Of a DNA stretch of 64,000 bases, positions 38,540 to 64,000 are shown one piece after another. Source of the stretch: Pristiophorus japonicus. Lineage: Eukaryota. The notes beneath the pieces are model-generated. The model saw nothing but the letters and a program-made list of their open reading frames with translations. It was not told the origin of the DNA and did not search any database. The DNA lies in assembly GCF_044704955.1 (NCBI RefSeq), contig NC_091981.1, forward strand, positions 71,734,001 to 71,798,000, given 5' to 3'. How positions within the stretch are numbered: position 1 is the first letter of the stretch; every line of letters begins with the position of its first letter. Position numbers and translations under genes: made by a program.

Positions 38540-39343
38540 TGTTGGGAGATATTTAATGTGGAATTGATGGGGATACTGGAAGGAAGGGTCCGTAAGCCCT
38601 TTGCATCATCTCTCCCTCGCCCTGATTAAGTGAAATGATACCCAGGACAGTCCCGATATGGGGTATTGAACCGAATATAGTGGGGTTTACATGTGCAGCT
38701 GTGATGTCAGAAACCCAAGTATTGGTAGCTTGTGGATTCGCGCTGGAATCAGACTCACCCCTCAGTAGTATGAATGTGCAGAGGTGGGGATTAGACCAGA
38801 TAAATTATGTTTATCTACAGATAGGCACCTATTGCTTCACCACTTGTGCTAAATCATACCAACATGGGCAGGATGAATGTCCAATAGATTATCCTACCTT
38901 TAGCTTTAAACCCACACAAACGGTCTGAATAAGCAGCAAAGCCCTCCTACCTGTAATAATTCACATTACTGAACTAAGAGTGAACTTTTCAATGCAAGCA
39001 GAAGCCCTGAGAGTAGTGGTTAACTTTGGACATCCAATTTCACCCTTATCCCTAAATCTTCAAGCCATTAAAGAAAGACCTTCAACTTCACAAGTACACT
39101 TGGTTCAGTTGCAGCAAAGCAATGATAGAACGCAGAGAGATTATGGCCCTAGGGAGTACCAGCTGGTGGGAAACCACATATAACGTGAGACAACACCCAT
39201 TGTATCGAATGATTTATATGGCAATCTTACCTATCCAAATTATGATTGTCATTTATCTTCGTGATTATGATGTGCTATCTGGGGATGTAATATATAAAGT
39301 TTCTAGGCGCGCTATGACTATGCATAGCTTAGATTTACAGTAA
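38540..39343 (+). pseudogene. 3' half of a retroviral env (Cys-rich region, heptad repeat, WW membrane-proximal motif, TM), degraded
   Basis: WEIFNVELMGILEGRVRK is homologous to 56984-57037. It continues YCFTTC..CP, then LQAIKE..LQQSND/IMALGSTSWWE and a hydrophobic MIYMAILPIQIMIVIYL. Confidence 0.65.
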
Positions 39344-42110: not shown

Positions 42111-43118
42111 GAAATTATGATTGTTTTACGGGGACGGGAAGAGGGTGGGGGGAACAACAAATTATGCTTATTGATATCGGCTCATCCGTTACCATCATCC
42201 ATACCCCACACCCTGAACGCCATGCTGCGGCGGGCAAAGGCTGCTTAACGTTACGAGGCTTTGATGGGAGGGCAACCTCTGCTCTTAAGGGAGAAATGAT
42301 AACTTTGTGCGTGAACGGGATTGATTTGACTGTTGATGACCCTGTCATGGTGACAACTCCTGACAGGAGGGGTATATTGGGAAGTGATGTTTTGGAAGGG
42401 TACGGGCCAATTATTGATTACAATCTTTGGATTGGGACAGGAGGTAGTGAACTGGTCAAAATATCGGATGCCCACTCCGTATTTGCGATTAAGAGGACTT
42501 GTCTGTACGAGATGCCAGATCACCCAGATGAGCAGGTCAGAGTATTATTTCAAATGCACTCACCCGCATTCACCACTAGCGAGCATGATTGCGGTTGAAT
42601 GGAGGGTGAGGAGATGAATAATGGCCGTCCCCCACTCCTTTGTTAAACAGTACCCAATTCCCAAAGAAAGTCATCCCTATATTCGAGATGTCATCGAATC
42701 CCTTTTACAACAAGGCATTCTGAGAACTGCCACTTTCATGACCAATTCACAGGCTTGGCCAATTCGGAAGCCGGACGATAGCTTGAGGCTCACTATTGAT
42801 TACCAAAGCCTTAACAAGGTTACGCCTATGTTAAGGATGCTCCAACTTTACTTTCAGAACTCCCAAAAGGCTTTAAATACTACTCCACGATAGACATTGC
42901 AAACGGCAATGTCTATCGTGGAGTATTCCTGTTAGAACAGAGGATCAATATAAATTTGCTTTCACCTTTGAGGACCAGAGTAACACGGGGACGTGCCTAC
43001 CCAAGGCTTCCACAATGCCCCCACCATCTTCCATACCAGAATGACACGGATTCTGATAGCTTTTTCTAAGCCCCAGTGCCTGCTTCTGTATGTCGCTGAT
43101 TTGTTACTGGCGACCAGG

Positions 43119-44040
43119 TGTAGTGTATGCAGGCACCTTTTGGTAATGACTCCACGAGGCAGGGTATGGTATTTAAACTGTGTAGACTGTACTCCTTTAT
43201 TTGCAGCTCCTTGAGTGAGGACACCAAGCTGTGAGCTCCCTTTTATATTGGGTTACCCGCAGTGTGTAGGTAATCCTTTGGTCTCAAGCAGCAGCATCCT
43301 CTGGTGTACAGTAAGGTGTGTACAGTGTAAGGTACATTCAGTGTTACAGACATCATATAACAATACAAGCATGCATACATAACAACACTCCCCCTAAGCA
43401 TTTTTGAAGTCCTTATTGTAATGACCTGGGAGGTGATCAGTAGTGGGCTATGGGAGGTTGTGGTGAGGGTTGTGTGGGGGCCAGGTGTGATCCCTGTACT
43501 TGAGACTGGCCTCATACATTCCTCCCTCCCCACCCTCACACACAGACCATGTGGGTGCTACTGTTGTGGGATCTCTCAGTGGGGTAGTCATTGCAGCAGT
43601 GGGTAGGGTGCATACTCTGTGATGTGGGTAGTTGTGTGGTGGTGGGCAGGGCCACAGGACTGTCTGGGCACCTTTTTCTCCAATTGGAGTTTCTGGCCAT
43701 CTCGGTTTGCCAGGAAAGCTGGAGGGTATTGGCCTCTCGCTCCTGGTGTTGGCCCTTGTGACCAGGGAAGTGTAGGGCTGGTCTGGGGCAGGTTGCCAGT
43801 GGTGGTGGCTGTGCTGCCCATTGACACAAATTGCTCTCTGACGACATCACAGTCACCCTGCAGAAAGCAATTCAAGTGAGCCAGGCCTACATGGCTTTGG
43901 TCGGTGACTCCAGACGAATACTAACCCAGGACTCTAAACCGGCGAGTGAAGTGCACCGCATGGCTACTTCTAAAGGCAGAAATGCTGCCGCGAGTCACGC
44001 AACCTAAGTCCGTCACATGGGACAAACCAGATGGCCCCAT
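43119..44040 (-). mobile_element. Gypsy-like LTR element fragment inserted in RT: LTR 43119-43383, PPT and short internal region
   Basis: TG...CA bounded ~265-bp segment with minus-strand TATA and AATAAA; minus-strand PPT agggggagtgt abuts the LTR; interrupts pol right after YVADLLLAT. Confidence 0.7.
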
Positions 44041-45233
44041 GCTGGTGCTGTGGAGGAAACCACAGGGCCCACCAAGGCCCACCTGACAAAAACAAGATAG
44101 ACATCATCCAACGGCTCCCGCTTCCTGTGTCCAGACAGTGCTACGATCGTTTTTGGGAATAGTGGGATACCAGCATAATTTTATTCCCGGATTTGCAGAA
44201 CTTGCAAAGCCCCTCTATGAACTGTTGAAAGGAAAGGAGGATCAAGTCTCCTCCCTATGGGGGCCAGATCACACCGCCGCAGTTGAGAAATTGAAACAAG
44301 CTGTTATGCAGACTACATGTCGCCTGACCCGATACAACCATTCCATCTCGAGGCCGCATCTACTGACCATAGTCTGACTGTGGTCTTATGTCAAGAATGA
44401 TCAGATAGGTTATAACCTGTAGCCTATGCTTCACAGGTTTTGCAGGGGCCAGAAACAATATATTCAGCCTTTGAGCACCACCTATTGGTGACATTCTGGG
44501 CCACTCAACACTTTACCTACATCATAGGCTTCCAGAGGGTTATCTTGCATTCCCCTCACACCCCACTGAACCTCTTTATCAAACCAAGCGATTGTTTGAT
44601 CTAATCCCAATGCATTAGTAAATGGACTTTGTAACTATTAAAACGGGACATTGATATAACCTCCAAACAGACTACTCTTTTACCATAGATACTTGCATAA
44701 GAGGGACACCCTCACAAGTTTCCACTGCCCTTAATAGACTTTAATTCCCATCCTGTTTTGCGATCGCCAATAGGAGGAGCCTCTGAAGTATACATGGATG
44801 GTTCCTCCTATCACATACAGGGCTCACCCCATATCAGTTGTGCTGTGGTCCTCCCTGAAAAAACTCTCAAGTTTAAAAGTAACAAACATTCAAGCCAATA
44901 TGCAGAGATTTTGGCCCTCCTCATTATCATTCAAGAAACTTCTGAGTACCCGGCGAACATTTGGTCTGACTGCCTATGCCATCAATGCTATGCTGTCCCT
45001 TCCCCTCGACCAAAAGAACTCCTACTTCTCATCAGATGGTAGACTCATGGGCCATGGCTATGTCTCTGGTGGCAGGCTTTGAAGGCACGCCGAAAGCCCT
45101 GTCATATTGGCAAGGTTAATGCCCATAAGAGAGACCAGTCCACTCACGCCCTCTGGAAGATGTAGCTACTAGAGAAGCAGCCCTGATAGGTAATCCCCTC
45201 CCTTTACAACTTGAGGTGGTAGTCCCAGTTGTC

Positions 45234-48115
45234 ATGGTTAGCGAAGGAGCGGCGAGAGATTGTAGAGGGACATGATCGGGGCCTAGGGGAGGCATGAGTT
45301 CAGGGCCAGCGGCCCAGGGGCAGCAAGGACCAGCCCACACTGCGATGTGTGCGCATGCGGAGTTCCGTCCAGCAGTCGTCGGCTCCTGTCACGGCGTGGG
45401 TAATGCGCACATCCTTGCGATCCATGATGATGACATAGTTGAGCAGGTGCCAGTGTTTGGAGCGAGGGTGTTGCCATGATGCCTTGTATTTGTCCCTCAG
45501 GTGGAACAAGGTGTTGGTGATGACAAGTTCATGCTCAAGACATTTTGTCAGGAGTAGGGTACCGTTGGAGTTGGCTTTCCCTACCCCCCTCTGCGAATCA
45601 TGCCTCCCCAGGTCTGTGTCCTTGCTGACCCTGGCGTTGAAGTACTGAGGAGGATCAGTTTGTTGCCTGCGGGGACGCAAGACAGGGATGTTTCGAGGTT
45701 GGTGTAAAAACCCTCTTTGGCCTCATCAGTTGCATCGAGTGTTGGGGCATACGCACTGATGGCTGTGGCGGACTGGTTCCAGGAGAGAGTGAGTCGAAGA
45801 GTCATGAGGCATTCGTTAACACCACAGGGGGAGTCTTTGAGGCGATTAACCAGCTTGTTTTTGATGGCGAAGCCGACTCCGTGGAGGCGGCGTTCTTCCT
45901 CTAGTTTCCCTTTCCAAAAGAAGGTATAACCTTCACCTTGTTCCTTGAGCTGGCCTTCCCCTGCCCACTGGGTCTTGCTTAGGGTGATGATGTCGATATC
46001 AAAGCATCTTAAGTTCCCGGGAAGCTATGGCGGTGCGGCATCCCGGCCCATCGCTATTGGGGTTGTCCATGAGGGTCCTGACGTTCCAGGTCCCAAACTT
46101 CATGTTAACGGACTGGAAGATGCCTGTGCATGAGTTCTTTTAACGTGGGGTGGTCGTTGCACACCAGCAACCACACGGGCTTAGCTGAGCAAGATCTTGA
46201 TCCAGTGGCAAGGGTTCCAAGACGACTGGAGACCAGGTACTGCTACATGGGCTTAGTTGCCTACGGCGAGATATTGGCCTCAGGTTCGGCGCTGGGTAGC
46301 GCCCTTGGTGGTAGGTGGTCCAAGGCCTGGTTGGGGACAGGCATTGGGAGGATCAGTGGCTCACTGGAGTTCAGGGTGGGAGGGCAGGGGGGGTCACAGC
46401 CATGGAACTCACCACGTGTTGGAGGAGGAGGCCAGGTCACCAGTGGGGGCAGAGAGTTCCAGTCGTCGTTGAGGAGGAGGTTGTCTGTCGACATGGGAGG
46501 TCCAGCCGTCGTTAAGGGGGCCCAGGCTCCGTCATGGAGGAGAGGCCCATCTGCCATCACTGGAGATGTTTCGATCAGATCACCACTGGAGTTGGGGCCT
46601 ACCGCAGGCTTCCCACCCCAACGGAGTTCGTCGGGGGATGTCGGAGGTCGCAGGAGGTCGCCGGGGGTTGTCGGAGGCTGTTCTTGGCCAGCAGTGGGGT
46701 GGGGCCTTGGGTATTTGCCCATAGGTGGCCTTGACTGCGATGAAGAATTCTCACACATCACGGTTGTCAGCCAGCTGATGTATCTCCTGTGCTTTCTCCA
46801 TCCCGGATTTTTTGTTGGACCTCAGCCTTGAGCCGTCTGTAATGCTGCTTCCAACCTGCGCTGTCTCCAGGTCAGGTCCAAGACCCCCCCAACCTCTGTC
46901 GTCGAGCTACAGTACGCGGACGATGCCTGCGTCTGCGCACATACAGAGGCTGAACTCCAGGACATAGTCGACATATTTACTGAGGCGTACGAAAGCATGA
47001 GCCTGACGCTAAACATCTGTAAGACAAAGGTCCTCCACCAGCCTGTCCTCACCGCACAGCACTGCCCCCCAGTCATCAAGATCCACGGTGCGGCACTGGA
47101 CACCGTGGACCACTTCCCATATCTCGGGAGCCTCCTATCAACAAGAGCAGGCATCGACGACGAGATTCAACACCGCCTCCAGTGTACCAGTGCCGCCTTC
47201 GGCCGCCTGAGGAAACAAGTGTTTGAAGACCAGGCCCTCAAAACTGCCACCAAGCTCATGGTCTACAGGGCTGTAGTAATACCTGCCCTCCTGTATGGCT
47301 CAGAGACATGGACCATGTACAGCAGACATCTCAAGTTGCTGGAGAAATATTATTAACGATGTCTCTGCAAGATCCTACAAATCTCCTGGGAGTACAGGCG
47401 CACCAACTTCAGTGTCCTCATCCAGGCTAACATCCCCAGCATTGAAACACTCAATCAGCTCCGCTGGGCAGGCCACATAGTTCACCTGCCAGACACGAGA
47501 CTCCCAAAGCAAGTGCTCTACTTGGAACTCCTTCACGGCAAACGAGCCAAAGGTGGGCAGTGGAAATGCTACAAGGACACCCTCAGCCTCCCTGATAAAG
47601 TGCAACATCCCTACTGACACCTGGGAGTCCCTGGCCCAAGACCGCCCGAAGTGGAGGAAGTGCATCTGAGAAAGCGCTGAGCACCTCGAGTCTCAATGCC
47701 GAGAGCATGCAGAAAGCAGCGGAAAAATCTTGTGGCAAACCAGTCTCACCCACCCCTTCCCTCAACGGCTATCTGTCCCACCTATGGCTCTCGTATTGGA
47801 CTGTTCAGCCACCAAAGAACTCACTTCAGGAGTGGAAGCAAGTCTTCCTCTATTCCGAGGGACTGCCTGTGATGATGATGATGTGTGCGCACTCGGTCCG
47901 TGCAGCAGAGCTGGTCTCCAGTCGTCTTGGGTAATCCTTGCCACTGGACCAAGACCTTGCTCTGTCAAGCCCGTGTGGTGGCTGGTGTGTAATGGCCACC
48001 ACATGTTTAAAAAAAAACACGCACAAGCATCTTCCACCCTTCAGGATGTAGTTCAGGTCTTTCATTGAAACACCTGTGAACTCATCCTTTTTTGGCATGG
48101 GACTGCCTATGACTG
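45234..48115 (+). mobile_element. Non-autonomous RTE-derived element (45234-45355 + 47880-48115) split by an RTE LINE
   Basis: The two halves rejoin to match 12800-13130. Confidence 0.75.
45356..47879. mobile_element. RTE-clade LINE with an inverted 5' part (45356-~46820, minus: 5'UTR + APE) and a sense 3' part (~46830-47879: RT C-half, (GAT)n tail)
   Basis: Minus strand: ISAYAPTL, NSNGTLLL..LVITNTLF..WQHPRSKHWHLLNYVI. Plus strand: LQYADDA, LNICKTKV, FPYLGS, LLYGSETW. 12-bp TSD gatgtgtgcgca at 45344-45355 and 47880-47891. Confidence 0.9.
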
Positions 48116-49944
48116 ACTGGTTAATTCAGCTCTCAATCTGGCTTCCCTTCAGAAAGAGTATAGACACCATCAGTTGGTCATCAATTGGCATGAACAAGGT
48201 GAATCCTTACCGGCACCCACTGCATGGGCCTCCAAAACCCTTCTTATCACAACTGGTACACAACCATTACTTATGTATCAACATGCCGCAGATAAGTGCC
48301 CGACTGTCTGTATTCCCCCAAAACTGGCAGATGAATTCTTGTTCCTATTTCACTCCCACCCAGTAGGAAGTCATTACTCGGCAGAAGTCACTTTTGCAAA
48401 AATTATCTCCATGGCCTGGTGGTCTAATATGAAGGAACTGTAAATTTAAGTTTCACAATGCATTCCTTTTTTACAGCAGAACCCCTCCCCTTGTTCCAAC
48501 CATGCCCTCCTTCAAAGCCAGCCAGGCCTTGATGGGCCCTGGACTCATGTTCAAATTGATTTTATTGGTCCACTCTCACTATCGCAGGGTAATTATAAAT
48601 ATGCCTTCGTTATCATCGACCAGTTCACTAAATGGATCGAGGCCTTCCTGTCCAGATCCAATACTGGGCTTGTTGCAGCCAAGTATTTATTGAGTGCGGT
48701 GTTCTGTAGGTCAAGTTGCCACTTCAAGTTGATAGCAATCGGGGCACCCACTTCACTGGTGAAGTTTTTACCAAATTACAGGAACTTATAGGAATTACAC
48801 ACAAGCTACATATAGCCCATCATCCCCAATCGTCCAGGATTGTAGAAAGAGAAAATCGTACATTGAAATCCATGTTAGGGAAAATGTGTACAGAACACCC
48901 CACTCAATATGTTACTGATGTGTTTGATGGCAATTCGGTCCATGCCATATAGGACCACGGGGCTATCACCTTACCAGGCAATGACTGAGAGGTTGATGAG
49001 GATTACAGATCATCTGACTTTGACTGGCATTACCCCCCTCATGCAACAACCACTGATAGTCGGAGCACACAGTGGAGGATATATATGAAGTTAACCGACA
49101 CGTGACAAAGAATTTAGGAAATCTAAAACCCAAATCAAGAAATACTTTGACAAGAAGGTTCGACCTTTTGAGTACCAGATAGGTGACAATGTCATGGTGT
49201 TAAATTGTGGGAAAAAGGACAATGTGTTTGCTCCCAAATGGAAGGGACCCTATTTGATCGTGGATACATTGAATCCAGCCATGTATCTGGTTCAGTACCC
49301 TAAAGGGGGAGTCGAAAAGAAGAAAGTAACTTAAGTGGTACCACTTAAATCAGTTAAAGACTGTGAAAGAATAAATACTGCACTCTGTGGGGTCAAGTTT
49401 CGGCCTGAGTTGCTCCAATTTTTTTGGAGCAACTAGTTTAGAATGGAGTATCTTAGAAATTGCAATTCTTGGCATTTAGTTTGCTCCAGTTCTAGTCAGT
49501 TAGAACAGTTTTATTTTGGAACAGATTTTTTTTCAAAAGGGGGTGTGTCCGGCCATTTACACCTGTTTTGAAAGTTTAGGCAGTGAAAACGTACTCCAAA
49601 CTAACTTAGAATGGAGTAAGTCTAGATTTAAGCCAGTGACTCGACGGCAGCCCAACAACAACGGCAGCAAGCAGCCTTCGAGCTGCGGTGCTTCAGGCAG
49701 GCCTTCCTTTCATGTAGGAGACAGGGGAGGCGTCAGTGTCTCGACAGCAGCCAAAGACACAGCAAGCAGCCTTCGAGCTGCGAGGGTAACTGAGGCCATT
49801 CGGTCACGGGATAGGGGCGGCTGCAGTGGCTGACGGCGGCCGAAGACACAGCAAGCAGCCTTCGAGCTGTGAGGGAGGCTGAGGCCATTTGGTCAGGGAC
49901 AGGGATGGGCAGCCAGATAGCCAGTTTGAAACTTAAATTTGTAA

Positions 49945-52277: not shown

Positions 52278-54267
52278 TGCTGTATTGAATTGACAGTCTT
52301 ATGTTTCAAAACACATAGTCCTTAATTTGCATGTACCTATGCAGCACCTGTTCTGGAAGTTTAGCAATGAAAAGCAGCACTCACTGATTTCAGCAGGTAA
52401 TTTATTCAACAATGCTGCTAAAAGCACTCCTTCAGACACCAAGAAATCAACAAAATTCAATCCCAAGCCTTTCCAGAGGTCCACAAGACAAATCAGCACT
52501 TTTCTTTAAGTTCCTTTAAAAATGGCCGAGTGCCAATATTTCTGGGCTACTGCGCGTGCACGCACACTCCAATGCGCACGCGCAGGGCTGCCGGCATGAC
52601 GTTCCCTCATTTGACTTAGCCCCGCCCCCCCTCCACTTACAGAATCGGCACAACTCTGTGGCACCGCCCCCCGCTGCTGTCTGCGCGTCGCGCCGAGCTC
52701 CCAGAGACCAGCAAGGAGCCCGAGAATTACGAGGTAGATTTTTGTTGCGCTTTCAGGCGTGAAAAACAGGCGTCCATGTCGGGGCTGTGCCGTTCTAGGC
52801 GTGGCCCAAAACTTGACCCCTTTATTCCTGCAGGTGGCCAAAATGATGTGAATCAGACGCATAATGGGACTTCTGATACTTGTTGCTGTTACCAACCAGT
52901 TCTCAAATATTATCATCATCCGGAAAGGAGTCAAGATGCCAACCAACAATATGCCATTGTTAGAATGGTGAGCGGCTTCAGGAGATGGATGCAATATGAC
53001 TGTGTACTGTGTTTATTGTGAGCACGAAAATAAGACTGATTGGACTTTGAATATATGGCCAGAGAAGGTGAAGGAATTAAAATAAAGTGTCTATGTGTAC
53101 TGGCTTCTGTAAGAATATAGCTTGAGGCAAGCGATAACTCCAATTTCATCAGCTTGCGTCAACTGCAACACCAAGAAATATGGCCAAAGATCAGGGCTTC
53201 AGTTTCCAAATCCTTTATTATGCACGGTGAACTGTAGGAATACAAAACAAGAAACACCACTAGATTTCTTGCAGTACACCATCAGGAACAATACAATGAT
53301 TCAAGAACAATCCAATAAAGCATCAATAAAGAGAAATTACTTAATTAACTGTGGTTCTGGAGGGGTCACATTAACAGAGGTCTAATTCCTAACTAACAAG
53401 TTAAACTTTAGCAGCAAAAGGTCTGACTGTGTGCATGTTTTTTTCATCACTCTCTCCCGACTCCAAAGGGCGCTACCCTGTGACAGGAAACGCTGCACCA
53501 GACTACGATGTCTCAGTGTCTCAAAGTGGCTCAGAGACCATCACACTATGTACTAAAGACAACGTTCAAGTAACCCCAGAGTTTCACTTAGGAAAAGGAA
53601 CGTTTGTAGATCCAGGATTTGGGTTCAATGAAATGGTTAAGATTACACTAAATAGTTTGGGGATCTCATATTTGGGACAGCACTTGAATACACTGAATTG
53701 CCTAAAATAGGTAACAGACACAGGGGAATGGTAGGATGCTATAATGCAGAGCTAGGGGGACACATGCAAGGAAAATACAACAGTTTGAAATCGGGGGAAG
53801 AACAGAGAAGATAATATTGCAAAGGAGAAGCGACAAGCATAAAAAATGAGAGGTGCCCATTATTGACAAAGGGACCATCAAACCATTTGGTTGTCACCCG
53901 TAGCTATCAGCAATTGTATAGTGATGTTCGGTATGAAATTATTCTCGTAATTTTTAATTTTACAGGTATTCCCTTCCCCAGAAATTTATGTCCTAAAGGA
54001 TACCATGGATACTAATGTGAGGAAAATGGTAAAGGATTTTTTGGATAAGAACCATGCACAAGACAAATGGGGTTCATGGGATATCGAAAAAACTTAACAT
54101 TTCAGGTTATAATAGCAGCCATTTGAGAATGAAAAGAGGCCTGGGGGAATGGATAGTTATAGGAGCCACTGCAGGAACTGCTGCCTTGAACAGAGTAGAT
54201 ATAGAGACTATGTTGGAACATGACGAGATAATGAGACAGCTGAAAGGCCTTCTATCTGGCATGAATT

Positions 54268-56652
54268 AAGAACATAAGAAATATAAACAGGAATAGGCCA
54301 TACCACCCCTTGAGCCTGCTCCGCCATTCAATAAGATCATGGCTGACCTGATATTGGACTCAGCTCCACTTCCCTGCCAACTCCCCATAACCCCTTATCC
54401 CCTTATCGTTTAAGAAACTGTCTATTTCTGACTTAAATGTATTCAATGTCCCAGCTTCCACAGCTCTCTGAGGCAGCGAGTTCCACAGTTTTACAACCCT
54501 CAGAGAAGAAATTTCTCCTCATCTCTGTTTTAAATGTGCGGCCCCTTATTCTAAGATCATACCCTCTAGTTCTAGTCTCTCCCATCAGTGGAAACACCCT
54601 CTCTGCATCCACCTTGTCAAGTCAAGTTTTTTTGAAGGTGAAAAAAAAGCACCTCCGACAGTGGAGCACTCCCTCAGTACTGTGCTGGAATGTCAGCATA
54701 GATTTTTGTCCTCAGGTCTCATGAAGTGGGACTTGACCCTCAACTTTCTGACTCAGAGGGAAGGGTGCTACCAAATGAGCCATGCTGACTCATACCTACT
54801 ATTTGGAGGTGCATTACTTGAGATGTAGTAAATATTTGTATTTGTAAGCACATTTTGTAAGTCTTGCCATCTATTGCCCATCTCTAAGTTGCCCTGAGAA
54901 GATGGTGGTGGGCCTCCTTCTTAAATTTTATACGTTTTGATAAGATCACCTCTCATTCTTCTGAATTCCAATGAGTAGAGGCCCAATCTACTCAACCTTT
55001 CCTCATAAGTTAACCTCCTCATCCCCGGAATTAACCTAGTGAACCTTCTCTGAACTGCCTCCAAAGCAAGTATATCCTTTCATAAATATGGAAACCAAAA
55101 CTGCACGCAGTATTCCAGATGTGGCCTCACCAATACCTTATATAACTGTAGCAAGACTTCTCTGCTTTTATACTCCACCCCCTTTGCAATAAAGGCCAAG
55201 ATTCCATTGGCCCTCTTGATCACTTGCTGTACCTGCATACAATCCTTTTGTGTTTCATGCACAAGTACCCCCAGGTCCTGCTGTACTGTGGCACTTTGCA
55301 ATCTTTCTCCATTTAAATAATAACTTGCTCTTTGATTTTTTTCTGCCAAAGTGCATGACCTCACACTTTCCAACATTATACATCTGCCAAATTTTTGTCC
55401 ACTCACTTAGCCTGTCTGTGTCCTTTTGCAGATTTTTTGTGTCCTCCTCACACGTTGCTTTTCCTCCCATCTTTGTATCGTCAGAAAACTTGGCTACGTT
55501 ACACTCAATCCCTTCTTCCAAGTCATTAATATAGATTGTAAATAGTTGGGGTCCCAGCACTGATCCCTGCGGCACCCCACTAGTTACTGGTTGCCAACCA
55601 GAGAATGAACCATTTATCCAAACTCTGTTTTCTGTTAGGTAGCCAATCTTCTATTCAAGCTAATATATTACCCCCAACCCCGTGAACTTTTATCTTGTGC
55701 TGTAACCTTTTATGTGGCACCTTCTCAAATGCCTTCTGGAAGTCCAAATACTACATCCACTGGTTCCCCTTTATCCACCCTGTTCATTTCATCCTCAAAG
55801 AACTCCAGCAAATTTGTCAAACATGACTTCCTCTTCATAAATCCATGCTGACTCTGCCTGACCGAATTTTGCTTTTCCAAATGTCCTGCTGCTGCTTCTT
55901 TAATAATGGACTCCAACATTTTCCCAACCTCAGATGTTAGGCTAACTGGTCTATAGTTTCCTGCTTTTTGCCTGCCTCCATTTTTAAATAGAGGCATTAC
56001 ATTTGCAGTTTTCCAATCTACTGGGACCTCCCCAGAATCCAGGGAATTTTGGTAAATTACAACCAATGCATCCACAATCCCTGTCACTACTTCTCTTAAG
56101 ACCCTAGGATGCAAGCCATCAGGTCCAGGAGATTTATCTGCCTTTAGTCCCATTATCTTACTGAGTACCACCTCCTTCGTGATTGTGATTGCGTTAAGTT
56201 CCCTCTTCCACCCCCCGCCCCATAGCCCCTAGACTATCCACTGTCGGAATATTGTCTGTGTCCTCTATCATAAAGACTGATACAAAATATTTGTTCAGAA
56301 TTTCTGCTATCTCCATGTTCCCCATTACTAATTCTCTGGTCTCGTCCTCTAAGGGACCAACATTTACTTTTGTCACTTTTTTCCTTTTTATATACATATA
56401 GAAACTCTTGCTATCTGTTTTTATATTTTTTGCTAGTTTACTTTCATAGTCTATCTTCCCTTTCTTAATAATTTTTTTAGTCGTTCTTTGCTGGCTTTTA
56501 ATAGCTTCCCAATCTTCTGTCCTCCCACTAGTTTTGGCCATTTTGTATGCCCTTGTTTTTAATTGGATACCGTCCTTTATTTCTTTAGTTAGCCACGGAT
56601 GGCTATCTTTTCTCTTACACTCTTTCCTCCTCACTAGAATATATTTTTCTGG
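54268..56652 (-). mobile_element. 5'-truncated CR1 inserted in env
   Basis: Tail aagaacataagaa at 54268; RT motifs in ORFs 55080-56634. Confidence 0.93.
54640..54790 (-). mobile_element. tRNA-derived SINE with a Deu-like domain (SacSINE1-like), partial
   Basis: Minus strand: A-box tggctcatttgg, B-box-like ggtcaagtccc, then gtactgagggagtgctccactgtcggaggtgc. Confidence 0.7.
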
Positions 56653-58599: not shown

Positions 58600-59416
58600 T
58601 GGGGTAGAACCTCCACCTTTGAGGTTATCGCTCAAAAATGGGTGTTATTTCCGGCGTGGGCAGTAAAAAAGGTTTTTCAGATCATCGGCTTCTCGCCCAT
58701 TCTCAAAACACTTAGTTTACATTTTTGAAAATGTGTGTTACCATGAGCGATATCAAGTGGGCGGTAGCGTTAAATTATTTTGACCTTCTGCTGTAAAGTG
58801 TAGCCATCCTTAGCAACTTTAGAGCTTCACAGCAAGTAGACAAACAAAAAGTAGCTGTTAACAGCCACATATTTGACAAAATTTGCCCTATAATGGAGGA
58901 GGCATCACAGCATGCTATGGAGACTGAAGCTGGAGAGAGCAGTGAGGTGGGAAGGAGCACATTGGAGGCCGCAAAAGAGCCAGGAGGTTCTCAGATGAGG
59001 CAAATGCCTCCCTCCTGCAGGAGGTCGAGTCACGCTGGGGTGATTTGACATGGGTGGGGGGGCATGGGAAGCCCACCCCAAAGGCCTACCAGAGCAAATA
59101 GACCAAAATAGCAGAGGTGGTTTCATCAGCGACCAACAAGGTGCGTGAGGGCAACCAATGCCGCAAACGATGGAACAACCTTGTGGGATACGCAAGAGTA
59201 AGTATTACATTGAATTACATGTATTTATGTATTTATATAATTTGATTTGTAACAGTCATGAGTGACTATCATCAGATGTGAGGTCTTTCACTTTTACCGG
59301 GAATGTTTTACTCAAAGCCTGCGGTGATGGTGTACGTCTTTAGGTAAAGAATGATAATCATAATAATCATGATTACATCTGTTGGTTATGTGTTGTATCA
59401 GTATCTGCGACAGAAC
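58600..59416 (+). mobile_element. Third Harbinger left end with a Myb/SANT exon (~58893-59197); LTR element inserted in its intron
   Basis: Starts ggggtagaa; RARRFSDEANASLLQEVESRW..REGNQCRKRWNNLVGYAR, then donor gtaagt. Confidence 0.7.
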
Positions 59417-60106
59417 TGTTGTAGGAGGTAGGCACCTTTAGAATATACCAGAATACTAGGCATTAGGCACCTGCTAGATATATCTAAACGCATATAAGTT
59501 TAAAGTGGCCACACATAAAATGGCTGCCCAGGCATGATGGGAAATCAGGTAGTCAAGCTGTGAACTGTTGAATGTTCAATGACCGAGCAATAACCCTGTG
59601 AGGCCCACTATAGGAATGCCTTGGATGCAGGATAAGAATAATGAGGAGAGAACCCATCTCCCATATTCAAGGCCATAAACCAATTAATTCCCCAGGAAGA
59701 AAGAGATAAGAGAACCCATCTCCTGTAAACAAGGTTATAAACTAATTATTTCTCCAAGAAGAAAGAACTAGTGAGAGAACCTATATCAATCAGCCCAAGC
59801 TGACAAAAGACGAACACATGGTTCCTGAGACATAAGGGGAATTCTATTGGGTTAAAATAACCTATATGTAATCTATAATCATTGTGATTGGCTTGTGTCC
59901 AGCCGTGATGGGCTGTGTAGCTGTAGTAAACTGTTTTGTAACTGTTGTGAAACATATAAAGGTGCATGTAATCCTTTGTTCTGTGAAGAGAAACCTGGAT
60001 ACGGTCCTGAGTTTTTCCTTCCCGCTGAGCGTAATAAAAGCTGCTTCAGCATTGGAACCGACCCTGAGTGTTGAGTGATTCTTCTAAGAAAACACTAACG
60101 CTAACA
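59417..60106 (+). repeat. 5' LTR of element 2
   Basis: TGTTG...CTAACA; TATA-like catataaa at about 59953; AATAAA at 60033; ~63-bp U3 repeats; PBS 1 nt downstream. Confidence 0.85.
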
Positions 60107-60107
60107 A

Positions 60108-60125
60108 TGGCGTAGTCGACGGGAT
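60108..60125 (+). promoter_or_regulatory. Primer binding site, tRNA-Ser
   Basis: TGGCGTAGTCGACGGGAT matches 16/18 to the complement of the recalled vertebrate tRNA-Ser 3' end (TGGCGTAGTCGGCAGGAT). Confidence 0.85.
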
Positions 60126-60162
60126 TTCCCGGAGTCGCTGGACGCCCTTGGAAAAAACCCGG

Positions 60163-62693
60163 GTGAGTATAAAAAACAATTTTTAAGTATAAAGGGTGCG
60201 GAAGGTGGAAGCTGGTTGATCGACATGAGGAGACGGTCTAATATCTCAAACGCCTAGCCTGAGCCTGAATTAAGAGGACTTTTGTCCCACGTGACGGCCA
60301 GGAACCAAGTAGGCGTAGGGAACACACTTAGACCGTGGGATCGTGATACCGAGAGACATCTTCCGGACCCAGTAGTGTAATTTGAAATACCCCGGGATAG
60401 AACCAAGCGGTGTACAGCGGCTAACGGAATCCAAACCTGTGAACAGGGTCGGACCAACGGGCTGAGCGGTGGTAGGTAGTCGTTAAGGATACGTAGAGCA
60501 CTGCGGGAATTGCTTAAACGCGTTTTTAAGAATTGTATAAGTTTGTGCAACAGCAGAACTTGTGACCTGACAGTAGCCAAGAGACAGTTTACTACAAGTC
60601 GCGCTAGAAAGAAAGCGGACCTCTGAGAGTAGATTCCTAACGGTAGTAGTCCTACCCAGGAATGGCCATGAAAACAAGTAAACTCGAGTGGGGACCAGAA
60701 GGGTCGCTTACCCGCCACCTGGCGGAAAAACAAAAGAAGCTAATTGAAAAAAATGATTAAAGCAGGGTGGAATCCTCAGGAATTAGTTATGTGAGGAATT
60801 ATTTAGATAAAACTACGAATTCCCTGAAAGGTCATGGATCCAAAAATAGAGCCGGCCAAAACAAGAAGAGAGACTGTTGTAAATGTCTGATCGTTGAGTG
60901 AGAAGTGTCTGTGTGATTTTTGACTGCAGAATGAATTTTTTTATGTTTTCATGTTCCGAAAGTCTGGTTGGAAGAGGAATGCAAGTGTCTGTTTATTTTA
61001 GAAACAGAGTGAAAGTCTTTTTTTAAACCCTTTGTAATGTTGTCCTGTATGTGGGAAGTTTTAAGACATTTAAGTTAGAAACGCAGGTGTGGATTTATTC
61101 GGATGATAAGTTACGGAGCTAGGAAAATAAACAAATAAAGAATAGGTTTGTTGAGCAAAATATTTATTTGACATGCTCACTTACTTGCCGAAAGAAAACA
61201 TGCAATGATTGATTGGGCTGAAAGACATAAATTTAGTCTCGGAGTGAGATAAAGAATGCTTTAAAAAAAGAGCTTCTAAAAAAAAAAAGTTTTAATTAAA
61301 GATTGAAGTTACAAAGTTTGAATTGGGATTTTGAGATATTCAGAGAAGGCACAGGAAATACTGAGGTGGATTTAAAAAAAAAAAGAAAAAGATTAAATTA
61401 AATCTGATCAGGTCAAACTCCTGGGCAAGTGGCGAGCTATCTGCGAAGGTGTAAAAGGAACTTTTGGAAAATGTTAAAAAAAAAACAGCAAGCTTTAGTA
61501 ACGACTTTGAAACTGGAGCATTTTGAGATAACGAAAAAGCACTCAAACTCTCAAAGATGGACTTCATTCCAGTTATGGAGAAAAAGAAAAAGATAAAGAC
61601 GCCACTTTGAAAGTAAACAAATGATTTTAAATTAACAACTTTATGGAGTTACGAACCCTCCGTGTAAAATACAAAACCTAATTTGAAGAAAGAAAAAAAA
61701 GATGTAACGGACTAAATGGAAAAAGACATAACTTACTAAATACTAGTTGATGTTTGCTGTGAAAAAGATATTGGTTTAATTAGAAGAGGAAAAAAAAAAA
61801 TTGGAATAAGTAAAAAACACTCTACATGGATTCGAATTTTCAATTATGAAAAAGTTTCAATGCAGTTTGAAAAGATTTCCAAAATGGACAGTGTTTATCA
61901 AAAATGTCCCGAACAGTCTAAACAAGCAGGAGGGTTTTGAAGATAACGAGGAGAAAGAGAGAAATAAAAAAAAACAGAATTGAATTTCAGTAAACAAAAT
62001 TGCTATTGTATGTGTGGTCTTGTTTTAAAACAATTAAAAAAAAAAAAAAAATTCTTTGGCAAGTACTTGAATTAGAAGTTAAGAAAACATTGGAGTTTAC
62101 TCTAATGATTTATGCTGTTTTTAACGGATTCCTAATTTCGAAGCCAGTTTTGAAGGCACAAAGACTTTTTTTCAGATGATTACGTGAAGTCACGTAATGA
62201 CATCGGGTCTTCTTACAAACCTGTAAAGGAGTTAACCCTTTCCATTGACAGCCGTGTTATACTGAACATTATTAATTTGGATTTCTTAATAGGAAAAAAA
62301 AAAGACTCACCTAACAGAGGAAACAAAAAATAAAAACAGAACTAGCTTATGTAATAATGCTTGCCTGATACAAGAAAGAAATAGATATTCAATAAAACAA
62401 ATTGAAGAGTTAAAAGCTAAGATAAACAGGCTGGAAGAGATAACAGGACAAGACGGATAGTGCGCAGCCATAGCACCATCACCTCTGGCAATAGAGCCAA
62501 TGTACCCCACGGTGGGTAGGTGTAGTCCACAAACCCAACCTAACGGTAAAGCAGACAGCGATGTTTGGAGGAATAGCTTTGGCCTTGGTCATAGGAGTTT
62601 GGGTAATATTTAAGTGGGTAAAGACACGGGCGCACGCCCTACAGATTCAGCTCGAAATGGTTCGATTATAACCTTGTGCTTCTGATTTTGCAG
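60163..62693 (+). promoter_or_regulatory. Predicted env intron: donor GG|GTGAGT at 60163 to acceptor TTCTGATTTTGCAG| at 62693
   Basis: Consensus donor just after the PBS and consensus acceptor. The first ATG after the acceptor (62781) opens the env signal peptide. Confidence 0.6.
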
Positions 62694-62780
62694 GGTGACA
62701 GGGACACTCGTAGAGCAAAAAACTTAACCCCTGGTGACGACCAGGCCGTCTGTTTAAAATTACAGATAATACTTACCGGA

Positions 62781-64000
62781 ATGGGAATACGAACGGCGCT
62801 ACTCGTAATATGGATAGCCCTGCGACATACACGAACCCTGGGCAACACCGACGGACAGCAGAGCACGCTGGAAATAAACAATTACATGAACTATGGAGTG
62901 TTGTTCAATTTGACGGACGGAATATGTGTTCCAGCGACTAAGGATTGGAGCAAGGACAGAACTTATTTTAATGCATGGTTACAAGTGAATCCTAATAAGG
63001 ACCGGGTATGTGTACAGTGCTCCACGGGTATAAGGAGCAGCTGCATTAAACGGAGGGATGTCAAAGGGCCCGATGAATGTACTTTCGGCATAATTTGTGC
63101 GCCTCCGGGACAATCCCAGCAATCAGTCATCCGCAAGAAGGGAATGGGGCTGTGTGGGTATTACGAGGAGGCGGGGGTGGCTGCAATATCATTGTATGTA
63201 TGTTTCTCACCCCCTCCAACACCGCGCCCCATAAGAATCACTACATTGCCCGAGGAACTGCCTTGCCCCATAACTACGAAGGGACCAGAGAATGGGATTG
63301 TAATGTACAGCGAGGGGGAACTGTTGTATGATAATGTTAGACATGAAATTGTGCCTGTTCTGATCAATATTTCAGGCATCCAGATGCTGGAATACTGTAC
63401 AGAACAGTCAAGGAAGATGTACAATGTATTAAGTAAAGTTGTCATGCAGCAGGCTGCCGATGAAATGGGTGCCAGTAGGTTCCGGGGACAGGGGTTAGCC
63501 CCAGGATGAAGAGGGAAATAGTTAATGATGTTGCTACCGTTTTCAATACAGATACCTCCGTAGTGAACTCGATAGACATACAAGGATTAAATGAGAGGGT
63601 GGAGCAAAACCAGGAAGACCAGGCCAACCTAGGAAAGGAGGGTGCCAAAATCCAGTTGGATGGCATCTCAGTCCTGGAAGCTCACGCTAAAACCATCAAT
63701 CACCTCATTGATAGAGAACAATAAAGCAAAGACAGGGGCAACTCTGTCATGCTTATGGTCTGTGGATGGTGGGACAGATCCGCCACAACCTCGACCAGAT
63801 CCAACGCGGGGAAGTACCCGATTGGATAGACAGTTCACATTTAGCTCAGTTGGCGAACCAAAGGGGGACACTGGATAATTGTACTCTGAAGGGACTGACC
63901 CGAGTATACCCCGCAATTCCAGATTGCCATGGGTAGGACTACCGGGATAGGGATAGTCCTGTTGATCCCTATAGCAACGCCGGACTCAGGGCCGTTCCCC
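62781..64000 (+). pseudogene. env of element 2 (frameshifts/stops near 63500, 63720 and 63935); runs off the right edge
   Basis: Signal-like MGIRTALLVIWIAL; Cys-rich domain; Pro-rich linker; CPITTKGP..LYDNVRHEIVPVLINISGI; RMKR then EIVNDVATVFN..; CHAYGLWMVGQIRHNLDQIQRGEVPDWID. Confidence 0.85.

Follow-up and report, generated by a model that had tools for sequence, protein, structure and literature searches.

A pol-less, env-bearing endogenous retrovirus family of Pristiophorus japonicus, probably a satellite of a full-length relative in the same genome

The parasite-of-parasite pairs of endogenous retroviruses (ERVs) known from cattle, koala and mouse are mammalian snapshots. In cattle they are represented by the D-type elements of ERVK[2-1-LTR] (PMC10924933), described in a study that names MusD/ETn and KoRV/recKoRV as showing the same pattern, and predicts that defective elements drive their family extinct. 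Zebrafish elements that bear env and have lost reverse transcriptase (RT) are on record (PMC8672886), as is background on F-like retroviral env (PMC12583693, PMC11468914, PMC10435555). The literature covered, with Repbase and most subscription papers outside its scope, held neither a shark env-only satellite nor a satellite core lasting several helper generations. Here, we analyse an element with long terminal repeats (LTRs) that starts near the end of a 64,000-nucleotide stretch of the shark Pristiophorus japonicus (assembly GCF_044704955.1, contig NC_091981.1, positions 71,734,001 to 71,798,000; the whole stretch is termed the window, and features are given in its coordinates, on the forward strand).

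We consider it quite probable that this element is a gag- and pol-less derivative of a full-length ERV of the same genome (the helper), likely copied in trans, with env as a passenger, and that it belongs to a long-lived satellite lineage. The anatomy, copy numbers, lesions and mosaic env reported below are direct observations. One satellite lineage has apparently persisted beside its helper over three or more age classes, so a single genome allows the long-term fate of such a pairing to be tested.

The satellite family and its full-length relative

From its 5' end to gag codon 45 the window element follows the helper (92% identity), then runs through 1.78 kb of unrelated DNA, and returns to the helper sequence up to the 3' end (91-94%); the helpers are ~91% identical to it. 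A tblastn search with the helper Pol over both strands of the entire 6261-nt element recovered no likeness to protease, RT, RNase H or integrase (best E 0.61). This includes the part downstream of env, where the first-pass annotation of the window had allowed that pol might lie: none was found to the element end at 65677. The same annotation had noted 2.5 kb devoid of pol motifs, and the absence of pol stands; the interval is not featureless, however, as it holds the leader, a gag stub, the 1.78 kb of foreign DNA and half of a membrane open reading frame (ORF).

A one-off deletion, entertained beforehand as an alternative, is contradicted by the 5' junction pattern, which occurs 892 times in the genome (control 0) versus 154 occurrences of the 'gag-continuous' pattern; since the 892 include tandem and assembly repeats, they stand for hundreds of independent insertions. 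The satellite family, without gag and pol, thus comprises several hundred to a thousand copies. A run of 40 successive junction copies was examined on contig C1: 38 were without pol and kept env at a cover of 0.90 or above, and two had helper pol. All 16 loci taken from an LTR search (one of them a tandem pair) had LTRs paired 5.9-6.5 kb apart, with 0-4 LTR differences and their own target-site duplications (TSDs) of 4-5 nt. The proposal that the window element belongs to a pol-less, env-bearing family of many insertions, which must borrow Gag-Pol, is therefore borne out. Full-length elements are scarce: when 40 of the 154 'gag-continuous' matches were sampled, full-length status was limited to the 15 exact matches (11 distinct insertions), the others being 24 older pol-less env-bearing copies and one 5' fragment.

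The helper, for which a relative with related LTRs and primer-binding site (PBS) had been sought and full-length elements of the same family were found, was reached via copies with long env frames. It measures 9.4 kb and encodes a gag of 469 codons with zinc knuckles, one stop, an in-frame pol of ~1180 codons (in the order protease, RT with YVDD, tether, RNase H, integrase) and an env of 707 codons, which ends ~140 nt before the 3' LTR and is followed by no accessory ORFs. Helper LTR pairs are 0-0.9% apart (typically 0.4%), and an RT search returned ~90 whole-RT matches at 88% identity or above, recombinants and decayed copies being counted in. Satellite and helper agree in their outermost 8 and 6 nt and in primer site, donor and acceptor, and have the LTR ends, leader and polypurine tract in common. 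One helper insertion was present five times with identical flanks. Between pol and env the helper carries an ORF of 66 codons predicted to encode a single membrane span; it is open over its full length in 19/27 helpers, recognisable in ancient helpers at 40-79 codons, and likely a real accessory gene.

Compared with solved structures, helper Pol scored highest against murine leukaemia virus (MLV; 405 bits), followed by foamy virus (205) and Ty3 (204); the best matches of its RNase H were gammaretroviral, and the MLV integrase C-terminal domain was matched at E 0.003. The best viral RT match (38% identical) was record L129, whose 10,688 nt equal the SnRV length given in PMC12193657. The two RTs grouped in a quick tree (SH-aLRT 86), a grouping not recovered with outgroups, and in a tree rooted on gypsy-like RTs the helper stood beside class I retroviruses (91.2/85), the two deepest forks being unsupported; the RT trees contained no lokiretrovirus sequence. 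On these sequence comparisons we call the helper a SnRV/class-I-adjacent fish orthoretrovirus, not a lokiretrovirus. The lokiretrovirus-like helper foreseen by the first-pass annotation is hence replaced by the full-length form of the same family. Its specific candidate, 'provirus 1' of the window, was rejected, being old and matching helper Pol at only 21-61% identity over short pieces. These pieces (38700-39140, 42160-49380 and 53680-54270) hold the old, broken pol and the F-type env of a distant relative, with best matches to shark, frog and coelacanth proteins. Many LINE-type RT fragments lie on either strand in window positions 1-56600.

The element spans 59417-65677 (6261 nt), with its 3' LTR outside the window. 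It is preceded by a 4-nt TSD (GAAC, 59413-59416; locus L009), the right copy of which directly follows the 3' LTR, likewise beyond the window. The 5' LTR (59417-60106, 690 nt, TG...CA) has a TATA-like motif at 59955 and a polyadenylation signal (AATAAA) at 60033, and differs at 3/690 positions from its 3' partner, located 5571 nt downstream at G000:C5:71798988-71799677 (window-equivalent 64988-65677). The PBS (60108-60125) is complementary at 16/18 nt to the 3' end of host tRNA-Ser(AGA). The leader (60126-60661) is ~92% identical to that of the helper, is not depleted in CpG, and by its position is likely the site of the packaging signal. It contains a first predicted splice donor (CGG|GTGAGT, 60160-60168, exon end 60162), called from consensus and conservation, and a second one (GTAGGT, 60468-60477, exon end 60471). 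A remnant of the helper gag frame (codons 1-45 of 469; 60650-60785), with a frameshift within an A-run, leads into the foreign middle segment (60786-62561), which is A-rich (40% A), non-coding, without likeness to the helper and in place of gag-pol. The 3' junction falls inside the small membrane ORF, whose 3' half occupies 62562-62692. The env splice acceptor (TTTTGCAG|G, 62677-62694, AG end 62693) is identical in helpers, and the first ATG past it, at 62781, opens a broken env that runs to the window end at 64000 and on to ~64850 (window-equivalent). The well-formed LTR, the tRNA-Ser PBS, the donor ~40 nt past it (60162|60163), the acceptor and the env start had all been called from the window sequence, and all stand.

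At host loci with tRNA genes matching the PBS, ARAGORN calls tRNA-Ser(AGA) in 4/6, and no genomic tRNA matches the two-mismatch PBS of the window element exactly. The two-mismatch form occurs in 40/57 young satellites and 8/16 helpers, and a fully matching form in 13/57 young satellites; both coexist in helpers and satellites, the former being commoner. A tRNA-Ser 3' motif also occurs in long tandem arrays of 1.95-kb period at G000:C23:18567909-20452539 (1188 matches genome-wide).

Donor 1 is kept in 86/91 copies where the site was read and, like the acceptor, is common to helpers, while donor 2 is present as GTAGGT in 69/69 context-matching copies (117 examined). Splice joins were looked for in three contig runs whose type is unrecorded. 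In run X1, a single contig links 60471 to the env acceptor at GT-AG sites, which points to donor 2 as a site from which the family may splice to env (the contig stems from a diverged copy, helper or satellite). The 60162-62694 join was absent among the joints listed in the three runs, and spliced DNA copies of either join numbered 0 in the genome.

Two further arrangements were observed. A tandem satellite array of at least 12 units with a 5.26-kb period lies at G000:C9:228403812-228480855. A second amplified non-autonomous class (L062, L074, L164-L171; ~30 further members in the RT search) lacks gag, has near-identical LTR pairs, and combines the 5' half of the satellite and some of its middle segment with nearly the whole helper pol (94-99%) and a broken env.

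Depth in time of the middle segment

The 1.78-kb middle segment marks the family in all three age classes, distinguished by LTR-pair divergence (young 0.15%, older 1.9%, ancient ~5%); the two LTRs are identical in 18/54 young copies. The ancient class was found by a middle-segment profile, which matched only one further locus (itself an ancient family member), and by a genome search with that copy, which returned family members only among the best 40 of 6214 candidates. Its 21 copies, with LTR pairs 3.8-7.0% apart (17/21 measured), carry middle segment and gag stub, lack pol in 20/21 cases, and have an env 52-77% identical to the present one. The 3' junction lies inside the same small membrane ORF in all age classes. 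Env sequences group by age: ancient satellites with ancient helpers (support 1.0), intermediate with intermediate and young with young.

Between the ancient and the window copies the middle segment is 78-90% and env 68-81% identical. Selection of the ancient copies by resemblance to the middle segment makes that segment look more conserved than it is, and slower change would also follow from fewer rounds of replication. At an assumed rate of 2.2e-10 per site per year (PMC4422223, which itself doubts the figure) an LTR divergence of 5% would correspond to ~110 million years; we hold our claim to tens of millions.

As to the source of the middle segment, no match was found in the helper, the window, the fetched proteins, the protein database (weak evidence) or the ESM Atlas (best 0.77). 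Its observed/expected CpG ratio (0.67, versus 0.71-0.77 in viral coding DNA and 0.37 in the window) bears on an origin from an older retroelement, though the source was not found. Scanning it for RNA folds gave none that convinced (1/29 windows below z -2).

Env decay, recombination and rival explanations

The window env encodes a signal peptide, a Cys-rich N-terminal domain, a Pro-rich linker and a paramyxovirus-F-like body, and its amino-acid sequence is 93-95% identical to that of the helper. The structure predicted for a natural helper env (pLDDT 65, pTM 0.38) matched 129 paramyxo- and pneumovirus F entries of the PDB at E <=0.001 (best 5.6e-7, with low TM scores), and its best match overall was the Env of walleye WEHV-1 (E 5.6e-14, BFVD). 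Profile comparison (hhalign) with the env frames of L129 and L143 gave probabilities of 92% and 95%. A Pfam search of env gave no match and sequence search found no solved structure; five relatives in the protein database come from Mustelus and Chiloscyllium, and more distant ones from other cartilaginous fish and frogs. The description 'fusion-protein-like' was thus correct, and since an F-like env is common to the SnRV and WDSV types it is not specific to lokiretroviruses. Residues ~38-142 of the helper env form a beta-rich, Cys-rich N-terminal domain, followed by the Pro-rich linker ahead of the F-like body; they are a candidate receptor-binding domain in a model of low confidence.

Env counts were made after dropping 14 loci that repeat another insertion, together with L084, L107, L062 and L074 (tandem, long or cut env). 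The frame was open from its ATG in 13/17 helpers, 2/57 young satellites and 0/24 older satellites. Lesions common to at least one other copy were borne by 54/57 young and 23/24 older satellites, and helpers had none in common; lesions common to many copies point to inheritance from a broken master. An early frameshift near codon 70 is present in 37/57 young and many older satellites and in 0 helpers. A slippage or editing site was rejected as its cause in favour of a single inherited duplication-type event. Both open-frame young satellites combine the inherited early length change with a private one. In the window sub-family the 5' env is helper-like (99%), and shared frameshifts built up stepwise from one site to two, three and four. 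The window copy itself, which had been taken for lightly damaged, has its frame closed after 242 codons, at a furin-type site, and bears four frameshifts (near helper codons 240, 328, 400 and 468) and one in-frame deletion.

Common env variants of young copies had a nonsynonymous to synonymous ratio (N/S) of 0.13-0.28 versus 0.65 for singletons, a result that, alone, would favour the view that satellites supply envelopes. Yet low values persist behind the inherited frameshift: downstream of it, in the 37 young copies frameshifted before codon 100, common variants had an N/S of 0.16 versus 0.50 for singletons, and 80/138 of them were also present in helpers. The signal of selection hence does not come from protein made by those copies; the low dN/dS of satellites is apparently imported by recombination with the helper. 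Both alleles occurred in both classes at 60 of 242 common env sites, near-fixed differences between satellite and helper were restricted to the first 400 nt of env (adjoining the junction), distances in env and middle segment correlated weakly in young copies (rho 0.29), helpers lay interleaved among satellites in the env trees, and chimaeras with 99% helper pol were found. Satellites appear, by this evidence, to recombine with the helper in the shared flanks.

We infer co-packaging, mobilisation in trans and the order of events. In a single origin, gag-pol would have been replaced by the unrelated segment. The satellite RNA would be co-packaged by the Gag of intact relatives, copied by the helper RT from tRNA-Ser and inserted by the helper integrase, a course that would rely on the LTR ends, PBS, leader and polypurine tract common to both. 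Template switching in mixed particles would repeatedly bring in LTR and env from the helper; env next to the junction would seldom be exchanged, leaving the early lesion linked to the centre, and each swapped-in env would be broken anew and decay freely. Env would be a passenger that breaks, since a gene whose product works in trans need not be intact in cis. The middle segment would then mark one satellite lineage following successive helper forms over a long time, by now far more numerous than the helper. A bolder version, which we hold to be rather unlikely, sees in this segment a selfish, heritable defective-interfering core that has outlived several helper generations over tens of millions of years, re-armed by recombination with the LTR and env of each new helper, conserved by winning packaging, and braking the intact proviruses to a few dozen against about a thousand copies of its own.

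Several observations weigh against a passenger env on a helper-dependent lineage. Variants unseen in the sampled helpers still had a low N/S (0.24-0.29 versus 0.50-0.65; p 0.025 and 0.003), which we ascribe to unsampled helper lineages. The env trees were built from recombining sequences by a quick method. TSDs of 4 nt were found in 26/47 young satellites versus 1/10 helpers (Fisher p 0.013), a contrast that possibly reflects a second integrase. None of the 11 helper copies read has the U3 start of the window sub-family, whose LTR is only ~85% identical to helper LTRs, so that none of them stands out as its immediate helper. The 4-nt and the other TSD length are both present inside one near-identical sub-family.

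The first-pass annotation had gone further and suggested a bipartite system, in which satellites give Gag-Pol helpers a working alternative envelope. This is very unlikely. Nearly all copies retain the length of env, the two donors and the acceptor, common env variants have a low N/S, a donor-2/acceptor join occurs in one X1 contig and not in genomic DNA, and the frame is open in 2/57 young copies; but the satellite env is the helper's own (93-95%), the helpers mostly keep theirs open, 79/81 satellites are broken, mainly by inherited lesions, and the two open frames bear the inherited length change besides a private one. Moreover, the low N/S continues behind the frameshift, and the spliced contig, from a run of unrecorded type, is possibly helper-derived. 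Nor was any sign seen of the co-option for which these copies had been considered raw material. A more specific form of that idea, in which a surface fragment of 242 residues, secreted from the window sub-family, blocks the receptor (an incipient restriction factor), would fit a first frameshift at the furin-type site that leaves signal peptide and N-terminal domains in place and is common to 14 young copies. We regard it as more doubtful still, given that 6 of the 11 copies in this sub-family break at an earlier point (frame lengths 14-148 codons) and that the copies are very young.

Retention of the env region, and perhaps of part of the middle segment, for RNA signals acting in cis (export, packaging, genome length), beyond what recombination brings, is compatible with a passenger reading frame; we take it as possible, if somewhat improbable. 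Env cover is at least 0.9 in 37/38 pol-less young copies (one exactly 0.90) and 24/25 older ones, with the frame dead, divergence since the ancient copies is lower in the middle segment than in env, and the 3' coding region of SnRV contains an element acting in cis (PMC12193657). Against this, env cover in ancient copies is 0.19-0.92 (partly a detection effect), older copies have lost as much as half of the middle segment, and the segment holds no strong RNA fold; its slower change is explained equally by fewer replication rounds, in a set chosen by likeness to it. That the copies are DNA-level duplications or assembly repeats, not retrotranspositions, is hardly credible: tandem arrays exist (C9, 5.26-kb period; C5, triple LTR), as does the helper insertion repeated with its flanks, but the great majority of sampled copies have differing flanks and their own TSDs, which refutes duplication for most copies and leaves it only to lower the count, and a third of the young ones have identical LTRs.

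Comparison with known systems

The helper resembles the SnRV group and the walleye epsilonretroviruses in its homologous Env and in a shared gag-pol frame interrupted by a single stop. It departs from the SnRV group in its RT (38% identical), its 9.4-kb length, its 707-codon env and its lack of 3' accessory ORFs, and the two trees disagree on sisterhood. With lokiretroviruses (PMC7947760) it has in common an F-like env with signal peptide, RXKR site, coiled coil and transmembrane segment, and a dual RNase H (tether plus RNase H), the latter common to all retroviruses. Unlike them, its Pol is nearest MLV and its RT falls inside retroviruses beside class I, not as sister to all (in a tree without lokiretrovirus RT); the lokiretrovirus host list of that paper includes no cartilaginous fish. 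As a young family with open frames and a conserved small membrane ORF, the helper widens the range of F-type env among fish orthoretroviruses past lokiretroviruses and foamy viruses.

The satellite comes closest to the bovine D-type. Both are defective classes with a swapped, unalignable centre that keep LTRs, primer site and parts of gag and env, both outnumber the competent class (85:15 in cattle), and both recombine with it in shared flanks, with linkage peaking beside the junctions. The cattle elements, however, are betaretroviral and recent and keep only portions of env, whereas the shark satellite keeps the whole env with its acceptor, and one centre through three age classes. Koala recKoRV1 (PMC6112702) likewise joins a 5' LTR and gag leader to a foreign centre and the helper's 3' env and LTR, and needs the helper integrase; its centre was traced to PhER, and it holds the env tail only, is younger than 50,000 years and counts tens of copies. 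With mouse ETn/MusD and the deer-mouse mysTR relatives (PMC10089650) the satellite has in common internal sequence swapped for non-homologous DNA, trans-complementation and non-autonomous waves, although those families are without env. Env also lends the shark family a misleading look, which calls for caution: with low dN/dS and intact splice sites, an LTR element carrying env alone may mimic an env donor or a co-opted fusogen when its selection signal is imported by recombination. The system is thus of a known kind, and what is new in it, set beside those of cattle, koala and mouse, is its unusually long, traceable history.

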